Virus record (IMG/VR): IMGVR_UViG_3300013426_000023
Span: 42,064-106,063 of that record
Strand: one strand, 5' to 3'
Length of the DNA stretch: 64,000 nucleotides
From: a virus
Lineage: Duplodnaviria; Caudoviricetes
Made by a program: the position numbers and the translations under genes. Of this stretch, positions 25,177-33,009 are shown piece after piece (position 1 is the first letter of the stretch; the number at the start of each line of letters is the position of its first letter). Below the pieces are notes generated by a model, which did not search any database, was not told the DNA's origin, and was given only the letters and a program-made list of their open reading frames with translations.

Positions 25177-25458
25177 TTACAGTGTATATTTGTCCTTTAC
25201 ACCATTTCCAACTACCATTAAGCAAGGTACCCATGTTGCACCATCATCAATGCTGCATTCAGCATATTGCAAGTCTGCTGCCTGACCTCCAGCTTCAATC
25301 TTTGCCATAGCTGGCTTTGAGATGTAGCCTGTGATTTCACCGCATACAAAGAAGAAACTATTAGGTTTCTTAGGGTTTTCCCTGATGTGCAAAGAATCGT
25401 TGTTAATTGACTTCAAAGATTCAACACTCATTCTGTTTCTGCTAATAATTGCATTCAT
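25177..25458 (-). CDS. First gene of the leftward arm, hypothetical
   Basis: 93-aa ORF with strong A-rich leader. Confidence 0.75.
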   Translation of the reverse strand: MNAIISRNRMSVESLKSINNDSLHIRENPKKPNSFFFVCGEITGYISKPAMAKIEAGGQAADLQYAECSIDDGATWVPCLMVVGNGVKDKYTL

Positions 25459-25610
25459 AGTCTAATGTTTTAAATGTTAATAATGTTAATGGTCACAGGG
25501 GATTATCCCAAAGTGCCGAAGGCTAGGGGGGGTTTGGGGTGGTTATCCCACATTCATGTAACTCCAATAAAATTTCAAAAAAAATAAAAAATAATTTTTT
25601 CACTTATTTA

Positions 25611-25642
25611 TTTGATAATTTAAAATTTTATTTGTACCTTTG
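25611..25642 (+). promoter_or_regulatory. Bacteroidota sigma promoter (-33 TTTG / -7 TACCTTTG)
   Basis: TTTG 25611-14, 20-nt spacer, TACCTTTG 25635-42. Confidence 0.8.
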
Positions 25643-25649
25643 CATTTAC

Positions 25650-25980
25650 AAGGAACATATAAGTACTTGCAGAGATTAATCAACTCTATAAACCATAGAT
25701 TGACCCAATATAGTAGGATTATATTTGAATGCAGCAAACTGAGAGAATAAAGGGTATCAGTAAAGGCTACAGGTAAGCATTCCTAGAGATAACAAGAGTG
25801 AAAAACAATAATATATAAACGGGATATAAGACTACTATATGGAAGCAAGCCATAATGCTGGCAGGGTCTCTTTATATAGTATAGATAATGATTGATTTAT
25901 TAATGCAAGGAATTAGGATTAATATATTAGAATATGAATGGAGTAAAAAGAGTGGTAATTAAGTTTATTACTCTTTTTTG
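25650..25980 (+). ncRNA. Predicted structured non-coding RNA (~330 nt)
   Basis: Own promoter and terminator; no convincing ORF (ATG-started frames checked are under 20 aa); nested long-range stems (see findings). Confidence 0.6.
25944..25979 (+). terminator. Intrinsic terminator
   Basis: AAAAAGAGTGGTAA-loop-TTATTACTCTTTTTT. Confidence 0.75.
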
Positions 25981-25987
25981 TTTTACA

Positions 25988-26019
25988 CTTGTAAGAATAA
26001 AAAATTATTTATATCTTTG
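25988..26019 (+). promoter_or_regulatory. Bacteroidota sigma promoter
   Basis: CTTG, 20-nt spacer, TATCTTTG 26012-19. Confidence 0.8.
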
Positions 26020-26044
26020 CAGTAAAATTTAAATAATATTATTT

Positions 26045-29000
26045 ATGTGGAATAATTTAAGTATACAAGATAAAGCTTCATATATAAGAGAAGCAGTAGC
26101 AAATGGTATATATAATAGAAGAGATATTATCTCTAACTATAATTCATTTGCCAAGGGTGGCTATAAGCCTTCAGATAAAGTAAAGAAAGATATAGCTACT
26201 TGGGAAGGTTCTTCAATGAAAACAAACAGAAGTTTTGAAGCTGAGGCAAACGACTTTAATAAGTATTTACCTAAAGGAGCTTTAAACAAATTAACACAAT
26301 CACAATTAGATGCACTATATTCTTATTCCTATAATGTAGGAGCAGGAAATTTCAATAAAAGAGTAGTACCTGTACTTACACAATATTTGAATGGTAAAGC
26401 TACTAAAGAAGATGTGCAAAAGTCTATGTGGGCTTCAAAGGATAATGAATTAAGAGGTCTTACTAGAAGAAGAAATTGGGAGAGAGAAGGATTTGGTGGT
26501 AATTATAGAACCATGTTTACTGGTACAGGAGGAACACCTAATTATTATGGTTATAGAGATTCAAGAATACCTAGTTCAGATTCTACTAATCAAGTAGCAC
26601 AATTTGATGATAATGTCACTAAACCCACAGACTTTATATCAAGTGTAAATGGATTTACTTTAGACCAAATAAATGAAGCTATGAATAATAGTACATATAA
26701 GCCTATTAATAATGTAGAAAATCAAGAATCTTCTCTTCCTCCTACAGGAACAGCGTTTACTATACCTTCATTAAATACAATGTATAATCCTATAGAATCA
26801 GCTAAACCAGATTATAGTTATACACAATCAATACTTACAGATTTTGATAATACGCTGTATGGCAATGATATAAATGACGAGGATAATATGTTTGATAAAG
26901 GTGGTAATCTATTTTTTGTTGGAGGACAACAACAAAGAATAACTGAAGCAAAACCTTATATATTTAAAAATGGAAAACTTGTAGCTAATCCTCAATATCA
27001 TCAACCTGATAGAGGGGTAGCTTTACCATTGGGTTTTCCTTCAATTTTTAATGCAAATAAAGACTATTTACCTGACCCATTATTTAATATATTAACGTTA
27101 GGTAGGAATATATATAATATAGATTATAAAGGACTTAAAGAAGCATATAAAGTATTAAAACAAAAATACACAAAAAAAGGTTTTAATTTAAGCAAGGAAT
27201 ATCCAGATTGGGAATCAGCTTTAAAAAAGGTATTTGATGAACTTGGAGACTTTTTAATTCCTGGACTTAAATATGGTGGTAGTTTAAATAAATTTGAAGA
27301 TGGTGGAAATGAAAATGAGGATAAAGGTTATAACTATGTAGATGCAGATAATCTAAGACATAAAGATTTTTTAAATCTTATCAATGTAGATGGTAAATTA
27401 ATGGATAGTGATAACAATACTTATAATTTACAAGCATTAGATAGAGAACATACTCCTGTAATACAAGGTACTAATATGTTAGCTAAGAAAATGGCAGAGG
27501 ACATGGCTTATGCTAATGCTAAAAAATATTTTGACTCTAATACTACTATTGATTTTATTAATGCTGCTACATTAGGCTTATTAAATAGAGGTTCTATATC
27601 ACAAGATGCTAGATTAATAAAAGATGCTTATAATACAGCTTTTGGTGATATGACATATGACCAATTAATTAATAGTGCAACATTAGGAAATGAAGGTATA
27701 TTTGAAAATCCTTTATATAACACATTAATAGATTTTGCTATTCCTTTAGGAACTTATGGTACTAATCAATTATTAAATACAAATAAAGCTAAAAATTTAA
27801 TAGCATCGTTAGTAACAAAAAACTCATTACTTCCTAAGAATTTTTCCCCTAATTATCTTTCAATTAATATAAATAATGGAGATAGTGATTTAATTAAAAA
27901 TATTCATAATAAAAATTTAGCTGAAAAATTAAGGACTGCTTATTTAACTAGATTTGGAGAAAATAAAGTATTGAATTTAAATAATAATTATTTTAGAAGT
28001 TCAAAACAATTACCTACAATAATGGAAGAATTTAATCCTTATCAAAATTATCCTGTAGGAGAGTATACATCTAAGGAGATACAAGATTATTATAGTCAAG
28101 TGATGTTACCTCTAATGAAAAGATATAATATATCTGCTCCAAAGAAAGTAAAGCCAGCAATTATTACAGTACCTGATAATATTAATAAAAATATAAGAGG
28201 ATGGTACAATCCTTGGTTAGATATTCCATTTTTAAGAGCTGTGGGAATAGATGGTAAATTAACAAATAGTATAAAAAATGGTTTATTTAATTCTACATAT
28301 CTACACGAGGCAGCTTCTCATGGTACTGATGAATTATTGGATAATCTTAATTTAATGTCAAAATATAAATTTGAATCATTTCTACCAAATGATTATGTAT
28401 TTCATCCAAAAATAAGTGCTTCAAAATTAGGTGAAGAATTTAGAGCAACAATGAATGAGGTAAGACAATCATTGTTAGAAACACGTAAAGAATTTAATGG
28501 CTTAGATTATTTTTATCCACAAGGAAAGGATTTAGAAAAAGCAATAGATGATATAGGTATTAATTTATTAATGAATAAAATGGGTATTACAAATGCATAC
28601 GGTGAAGATTATTTTAATGCTTGGAATAATTTAAAGAATAGAGCTAACAATGGTAATTTAAGAGACATACAAAATTTAATTAATTTTGAAAATAATATTA
28701 AGGATGCTTTTAAATATCTTCCTGCTATTGGAACAGGTGTTATAGGTACAACAGCCTTAAATAATAAGGAAAAAGCATTAGGAGGACCATTAAATGCTTA
28801 TGCAGGGGGAGGAATCTTAGATATAATAAGTAATTTCTTTACAGACAATAAACAATCTCAAATTAAACCAAAAGTATATATAAGTTTAAGTGGACAACAT
28901 TTTAAAACAGCACATGAAGCTGCTATAGATAATTTTAACTTACAAAAAGGTAGAGGAAAATATGCTCCAAAGAATATAAATTATATTGTAAAAGCAGGTG

Positions 29001-32784: not shown

Positions 32785-33009
32785 ATGGAGGACAAAAGAA
32801 AAGAATATAATAAAGAGCCTGTATATTACTGTGCAAGATGTCTATCTCTTAGAATACTTGGTGTAGAAGGTATGGAAGGCTTAGATTATTGTGATGAATG
32901 TAATTCAACAGAAATAAAGGAAACTACAATAGATGAGTGGAATAAAATGTATGAGAATAAACATCATCACTCTTATTTAGATAATTATAGTAATAACAAT
33001 AAAAATTAA
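32785..33009 (+). CDS. Zinc-finger protein
   Basis: YCARCLSL...YCDECNS. Confidence 0.75.
   Translation: MEDKRKEYNKEPVYYCARCLSLRILGVEGMEGLDYCDECNSTEIKETTIDEWNKMYENKHHHSYLDNYSNNNKN

Follow-up and report, generated by a model that had tools for sequence, protein, structure and literature searches.

A new family of structured non-coding RNAs from crAss-like phages

We describe a non-coding RNA unit encoded on the + strand of a crAss-like phage, at positions 25648–25979 of a 64,000-nucleotide (nt) stretch of the virus record IMGVR_UViG_3300013426_000023. This whole stretch is referred to herein as the window, and the record that contains it is 106 kb. The structured domain of the RNA spans approximately 260 nt (25649–25910), and it belongs to a family of structured, non-coding crAss-like phage RNAs that had not been described before. 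Homologues occur in more than 100 phage contigs from the guts of humans, rodents and ruminants; the 78 loci counted here comprise 64 distinct cores, and the RNAs are approximately 210–370 nt long. Neither Rfam 15 nor the literature that we searched contains the class; this claim of novelty concerns the class, not its mechanism. A previous sequence-only reading of the window had proposed an unannotated, non-coding, structured phage RNA at this site, and the fold, the covariation among relatives and the lack of an Rfam match bear this proposal out.

The + strand of the region folded with an energy of -73.6 kcal/mol, versus -55.2 ± 4.4 kcal/mol for shuffled sequences (z = -4.2), and none of 100 shuffles was as good. 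The fold of the - strand was weaker (z = -3.1), and several G-U pairs become A-C on that strand. The RNA is branched, with a 5′ hairpin (P0), a basal rod, a helix (P1), and a junction that carries a long P4/P4b arm and a small hairpin (P7), while its apical junction bears the P5-P5b-P6 arm and an A-rich strand. P0 (25649–25669) has a CAAG/CUUG stem and a 13-nt loop; its stem varies by lineage (CAAG/CUUG, CUAG/CUAG or UAA/UUA), its loop (GACAUAGCAAGUA-like) is preserved, and the whole hairpin is missing from the short forms of the RNA in locus L333 and the phage ‘tikkala’. In the minimum free energy structure, the 5′ strand of the basal rod (25666–25694) pairs with 25876–25910, whose terminal CAAGG repeats the 5′ arm of P0. 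The complementarity of the rod is kept despite lineage-specific letters (CUUGCA/UGCAAG in the window, CAGGAU/AUUCUG in cr85), with one double compensatory change in L273, and the 5′ and 3′ ends of the RNA were paired in each lineage that we folded.

Above the rod, P1 joins 25695–25706 to 25864–25875, and its 3′ strand contains a family-wide GGUCUCU motif that lies 30–70 nt 3′ of the core in 60 of 64 homologues. The 5′ strands of the long arm occupy 25708–25726, with P4 (25708–25716) pairing with 25832–25840, a tandem GA (25717–25718) facing 25830–25831, and P4b (25719–25726) pairing with 25822–25829. The apical arm (25727–25782) consists of P5 (25727–25732/25777–25782), P5b (25733–25735/25766–25768) and P6 (25738–25742/25757–25761), with a 14-nt loop, L6 (25743–25756), and an 8-nt bulge, J5 (ACAGGUAA, 25769–25776), both of which are nearly invariant. 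The 38-nt A-rich junction strand (25783–25821) is predicted to be unpaired and is nearly invariant between lineages. The segment that follows (25822–25875) holds the 3′ strands of P4b, the GA tandem and P4, a linker, P7 (GCCA 25849–25852/UGGC 25859–25862) and the 3′ strand of P1. Lineages differ by whole hairpins of 30–70 nt inserted at one junction site and by alternative hairpins in the place of P7. The helices listed in the sequence-only reading (GACCC 25702–25706/GGGTC 25864–25868, 25708–25716/25832–25840, GAATGC 25727–25732/GCATTC 25777–25782 and ACTGA 25738–25742/TCAGT 25757–25761), together with the tandem GA, its extension and the unpaired A-rich strand, were all recovered at these positions. 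The RNA is not a plain rod, however, but has branched junctions.

Two pairs of pairings are mutually exclusive. In one, a local hairpin (25677–25681/25698–25702) is exclusive with the basal rod, and both alternatives covary. P0 versus rod closure is a candidate alternative pairing, and the end of the A-rich strand could possibly pair with the 3′ strand of P1.

Homologues were collected by several routes. When GenBank phages were compared with 12 kb around the site, the only matches were tRNAs and 112 nt of the RNA, 86% identical to cr85_1. Exact-word scans located the RNA in 13 IMG/VR contigs and 32 gut-metagenome contigs; two of the 34 metagenome 20-mer matches (L256 and L258) were chance matches within coding DNA and were discarded. 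The matches listed for two loose 14–15-nt DNA patterns were likewise mostly chance, and nhmmer retained only L202 and L218. A covariance model of the 5′ half of the RNA (R1) detected diverged copies in two phage contigs whose portals are 57–58% identical to that of the window. Two weak R1 matches, L335 (24 bits, beside a portal gene) and L336 (18 bits), were missed by a second model and dropped. Blastn searches from the diverged copies led to ‘tikkala’, cr106_1 and bajarodcaudo virus 1 (rodent), in all three of which the RNA region is unannotated. The second model (R2) was built from five diverged copies only, and it retrieved every other lineage at 58–97 bits. R2 also scored 54 more loci fetched by a junction-strand pattern, including five contigs of metagenome-assembled genomes (MAGs), one of them from a goat-omasum MAG. 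We take these five RNA-bearing contigs (2–62 kb) to be mis-binned phage contigs; a sample of 150 other genomes from the order to which the goat-omasum Bacteroidales MAG (G036) belongs yielded no host homologue. Named carriers of the RNA include cr85_1, cr106_1 (Mahstovirus), Kehishuvirus ‘tikkala’ and bajarodcaudo virus 1, and each of those with a taxonomy line is assigned to the Steigviridae, Asinivirinae.

The relatives, in which the sequence-only reading would have the helices covary, showed overwhelming covariation. In two R2 alignments, all 368 helix cells of the first and 99.7% of the 779 in the second formed standard pairs, and in each alignment 16 of 18 pairs had changed on both sides. 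The covariation score was 0.83 versus 0.24 for shuffled data in the first alignment and 0.77 versus 0.18 in the second, with none of 500 shuffles reaching either value, and when the pairing partners were slid out of register as a control, only 31–44% (first) and 28–55% (second) of the cells were paired. Taken together, the shuffled and slid controls spanned 28–70%. R2 alignments are fitted to a covariance model, which favours pairing; anchor-based extraction of P5 and plain MAFFT alignments agreed with the pairing that they gave. P5 occurs as nine distinct sequences, each with six of six positions paired (GAAUGC/GCAUUC, GGAUGC/GCAUUC, GGGCAC/GUGCCC, AGUUGC/GCAACU, GGUCUA/UAGACC, CCCCUA/UAGGGG, GGUUCA/UGAACC, UCCCAA/UUGGGA and CUUCAA/UUGAAG). 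P4 has entirely different yet still paired sequences in at least seven lineages, with several compensatory changes between L260 and cr85_1 and further ones between the window and L276, and P4b covaries at five of five pairs. Since these compensatory changes are accompanied by strand-specific G-U pairs, selection appears to act on pairing in the RNA.

The unpaired nucleotides are conserved in the opposite manner. Among 11 lineage representatives, 40 of 90 unpaired columns were invariant, versus 4 of 36 paired ones. The invariant unpaired segments are L6, J5 and the A-rich strand, with the GGUCUCU of the P1 3′ strand listed alongside them, and L6 exists as two co-varying haplotypes. The A-rich strand is conserved in L333 and L334, both of which were detected by a model that excluded it. 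The portal proteins of eight RNA-carrying records share 57–67% identity with the window portal (60–67% for five RNA-bearing phages compared with the window phage), whereas the unpaired core of the RNA is almost frozen.

The RNA lies where the two arms of the genome diverge. Leftward genes end at approximately 25460 and rightward genes begin at 26045, and the rightward arm encodes the terminase, portal and capsid protein as well as a 2571-residue open reading frame (ORF) that, judged by its size, is presumably a virion RNA polymerase. The promoter of the RNA (25611–25642, +), read directly from the sequence, matches the Bacteroides -33/-7 consensus, with a -33 box TTTG (25611–25614) and a -7 box TAccTTTG (25635–25642) that are 20 nt apart, and transcription probably starts at approximately 25648–25650. 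Of the 64 distinct homologues, 61 have a TAnnTTTG box at a distance of 6–98 nt 5′ of the core. Downstream, an intrinsic terminator (25945–25979, +) combines a 14-bp hairpin with a U-run (-9.5 kcal/mol before the T-run), an arrangement shared with L276/L011, L372 and L375. A second promoter box, TAtcTTTG (26012–26019, +), precedes the gene at 26045 for a 1439-residue protein, as it does in L276. The promoter and terminator had been predicted to enclose a region with no convincing ORF, and both elements were confirmed. A translated small ORF does not explain the region: the + strand has stop codons in all three frames in the window, and in 58 homologues the longest ATG ORF within the RNA had a median of 17.5 codons and differed in frame and strand, so that no ORF is conserved.

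Two further features of this spacer were observed. A G-rich island (25491–25552) stands in the AT-rich spacer approximately 60 nt upstream of the -33 box of the RNA promoter, and comparable G-rich blocks lie upstream of the promoter in cr85_1, L011, L218, L333 and L334. On the other side, window positions 25934–26032 resemble a remnant of an ORF start found in L009 and L013. In those two loci the RNA is followed by an 87-residue ORF, and the window remnant is overwritten by the terminator and the new TAtcTTTG promoter of the 1439-residue protein gene.

Searches against known RNA families returned nothing that could account for the RNA. At the gathering threshold, the 4227 models of Rfam 15 matched only tRNAs in the whole window. 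At E ≤ 10, positions 25400–26100 gave four weak chance matches, the best of which scored 20.4 bits, to the terminator hairpin, versus a threshold of 55.8 bits. In five homologous loci at E ≤ 1, tRNAs alone were matched. Full-text literature searches on non-coding RNAs of crAss-like phages returned nothing relevant, and ARAGORN called no transfer-messenger RNA or tRNA-like element in the RNA region.

The RNA is always oriented rightward, is the first unit of the rightward arm and occurs once per genome. What follows it varies. The first downstream ORF starts approximately 40–160 nt after the RNA in most lineages and belongs to at least eight unrelated families, although in at least nine lineages it encodes the N-terminus of the window's 1439-residue protein; this N-terminus (window 26045–26120; MWNxLS...NGI) is shared by first genes whose proteins have 64 to 1929 residues. 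A tRNA array, usually led by tRNA-Gln, lies 0.3–5 kb downstream in 37 of 64 distinct-core loci, and many of the remaining loci end before any array could be reached. An intrinsic terminator stands directly 3′ of the RNA in the window, L276, L372 and L375, and in the window, L276 and L372 the terminator is itself followed by a new promoter box. Only 4 of the 64 distinct cores have a terminator within approximately 110 nt. The interval from the RNA to the ORFs and tRNAs downstream yielded no terminator in approximately 56 of 64 lineages. The RNA had been called a stand-alone unit at the divergence point, which holds for the window genome with its promoter-to-terminator unit, but not for most relatives, in which ORFs or tRNAs follow directly.

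Several side observations were made in the same downstream region. In L333 and L415, the first tRNA after the RNA has a CUA anticodon (‘Pyl’) by ARAGORN, and the portal frame in G004, the record of L282, carries TAG at 20 in-frame positions, which suggests that this codon is recoded. A mini-ORF of 4–5 codons lies between the RNA and the next gene in ‘tikkala’ (L337, approximately 1745–1790) and in L333 (approximately 1810–1850), in both cases preceded by an unusually strong GGAGGGAGGG Shine-Dalgarno-like run.

Among near-complete relatives, the RNA was present in one of four and absent from three of four. The phage crAss001 lacks it even though its promoter is 99% identical to that of the RNA-bearing ‘tikkala’; from the transcription start on, an unrelated non-coding segment of 337 nt occupies the same slot. 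This segment was rejected as a homologue, with no match to R2, and it folds no better than shuffled sequences (z = 0). It lies at 662–998 of L340 (MH675552), is GC-richer, is 98.6–100% conserved in 29 Kehishuvirus primarius-like records, has 79% identity over 87 nt to cr128_1, and has no Rfam match.

We tentatively favour a role in trans, as a stable accessory RNA with a conserved binding partner. The type of promoter suggests that host RNA polymerase would transcribe the RNA, its paired 5′ and 3′ ends would protect it and make it stable, and the terminator at 25945–25979 would release it in the window phage; in most relatives, it would need to be cut out of a longer transcript. As an accessory scaffold or decoy, the RNA would then work in trans and bind a slowly evolving partner through its invariant unpaired nucleotides; this partner may be a core phage protein or, on the host side, a protein or an RNA machine. 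Since the unpaired core is frozen across phages with widely diverged proteins, this partner is probably a conserved macromolecule, and since the first downstream ORF comes from so many unrelated families, the RNA does not appear to be tied to one gene product. We favour this role because a self-contained promoter-to-terminator gene persists under structural selection in several lineages, and because the RNA is uncoupled from any specific downstream gene, has paired ends and behaves as an exchangeable cassette. In at least three separate lineages (the window and L276; L372; L375), the RNA is immediately followed by a terminator, which supports an independent gene, and the absence of the RNA from crAss001 and the other near-complete relatives that lack it supports its accessory nature.

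Several points weigh against this role. The ends, abundance and stability attributed to the transcript are deduced from sequence features. The terminator-less majority of lineages gives the RNA the look of a 5′ leader, and the terminators that do follow it could equally be attenuators. As for partners encoded by the phage, the first leftward protein (25177–25458) showed no co-occurrence with the RNA, and among the RNA carriers checked, a TROVE/Ro60-like protein was encoded only by cr106_1.

The main rival to a trans-acting RNA, and one that fits the terminator-less majority, is a cis-acting leader, whether for antitermination or as a sensor. In the antitermination version, which we consider unlikely, the nascent RNA would fold shortly after promoter escape and modify host RNA polymerase, much as HK022 put or the Bacillus EAR element does, so that transcription of the long rightward unit, with up to approximately 20 untranslated tRNA genes, continues past intrinsic and Rho-type terminators. 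The known put and EAR elements are 65–120 nt long. The RNA resembles put, EAR and the short lambda pR′-tR′ transcript in that a structured element opens a long phage operon immediately behind a promoter for the host polymerase, in some cases with a terminator next after it, as in antitermination modules. It is always the first element transcribed, in the orientation of the downstream genes and once per genome; unrelated downstream genes fit a gene-independent role, and the conserved host polymerase would account for the frozen unpaired nucleotides. However, the RNA is much larger than these elements, and approximately 260 nt would have to be made before its closing helices form. In the window, L276 and L372, the promoter box past the terminator means that the downstream genes need no read-through, and the RNA is missing from crAss001 and from further relatives that share the operon layout.

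As a riboswitch-like sensor, the junction core would bind a small molecule or tRNA, and alternative pairings would control the downstream genes; P0 versus rod closure and the end of the A-rich strand versus the 3′ strand of P1 are the candidate switches. The RNA lies in the 5′ untranslated region of most lineages, and its closing helix P1, conserved junction nucleotides, covarying helices and optional inserted hairpins are a classic aptamer signature. The mutually exclusive pairing sets, with covariation on both sides of the hairpin-versus-rod alternative, and the terminators after the RNA in a few lineages also agree with a switch. We nevertheless regard it as improbable: the downstream genes, with their unrelated first ORFs, have no common function; a recognisable expression platform is missing in most lineages, with a terminator so close to the RNA in so few of them; the closing rod, at more than 25 bp, is long for a switch; and the Rfam riboswitch models were unmatched.

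The remaining RNA roles are disfavoured, being unsupported by model searches or architecture. GOLLD and ROOL (RF01998 and RF03087) are orphan, elaborately folded RNAs of approximately 600–800 nt from Firmicutes, often borne by phages or prophages beside tRNA genes, and the T4 stable RNAs ‘species 1 and 2’ (RNA C and D) lie within a tRNA cluster and are co-transcribed and processed with the phage tRNAs. A self-processing RNA or an oligomeric RNA of the GOLLD/ROOL type that matures or protects the tRNA transcript would accord with the frequent downstream tRNA array and with a conserved core in junction strands, as in ribozymes. The Rfam ribozyme, GOLLD and ROOL models were all unmatched, the RNA is far smaller than GOLLD or ROOL and belongs to Bacteroidales phages, and crAss001 retains the tRNA array without it, which leaves this role with little to recommend it. 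The likeness to T4 species 1 and 2, by description only, extends to being a small phage RNA co-located with phage tRNAs; unlike them, the RNA precedes the array and has its own promoter.

The sequence-only reading had offered a 6S-like polymerase decoy as an example of what the RNA might be. 6S RNA binds sigma-holoenzyme and templates a product RNA. The paired ends, largely helical body, strong host promoter with its abundant-looking transcript, and conserved central single strand are consistent with such sequestration. Yet neither 6S (RF00013) nor Bacteroidales-1 was matched at E ≤ 10, and a multi-branch junction, with 0 nt on the 5′ side and 38 nt on the 3′ side, takes the place of the large two-sided central bubble by which 6S mimics an open promoter. 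The promoter of the RNA would also require the very holoenzyme to be sequestered. We consider a 6S-like role very improbable.

Y RNAs, the partners of Ro60/Rsr (RF00019 and bacterial YrlA), share with the RNA a long stem from both ends and a variable internal module. In contrast to them, the RNA has no model match and no tRNA-like module by ARAGORN, and most phages that bear it have no phage TROVE gene. The TROVE/Ro60 lead came from the crAss001 paper (PMC8375218). We located TROVE/Ro60-like ORFs (PF05731) in crAss001 (97428–97901, -) and cr106_1 (near 32806, +), and none in the window genome, ‘tikkala’, cr85_1 or bajarodcaudo virus 1; the B. thetaiotaomicron control genome has a TROVE gene. 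As the phage gene is present in crAss001, which lacks the RNA, and does not track the RNA, the Y-RNA reading is not supported; host Rsr is a possible partner. Finally, that there is no RNA gene here, but a DNA-level element (an origin or packaging site) or a small protein gene, is scarcely credible: the strand-switch position beside the G-rich island would suit it, but it is at odds with the strand-specific G-U pairs and compensatory changes, the lack of a conserved ORF, and insertions of 30–70 nt that fold into their own hairpins.

Few viruses of the human gut are as abundant as the crAss-like phages, whose biology is mostly unexplored. The RNA adds a class to the short list of orphan structured phage RNAs, and its unpaired core is better conserved than the structural proteins of the phages that carry it. 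It is possible, although we hold this with considerable doubt, that the new class has a mechanism of its own, either as a decoy or scaffold neutralising a conserved Bacteroidales factor (candidate targets being a defence protein, an RNA-repair or Ro-type complex, or a component of RNA polymerase or the ribosome) or as a ligand- or tRNA-sensing switch that reads the state of the host. In such a case, the RNA would be an exchangeable cassette in a slot that is filled by another non-coding leader in, for example, crAss001. Its presence in the culturable ‘tikkala’ (grown on B. cellulosilyticus WH2) and absence from the close relative crAss001 amount to a natural swap experiment, and the RNA thereby offers a testable handle on how crAss-like phages take over or sense their Bacteroidales hosts.
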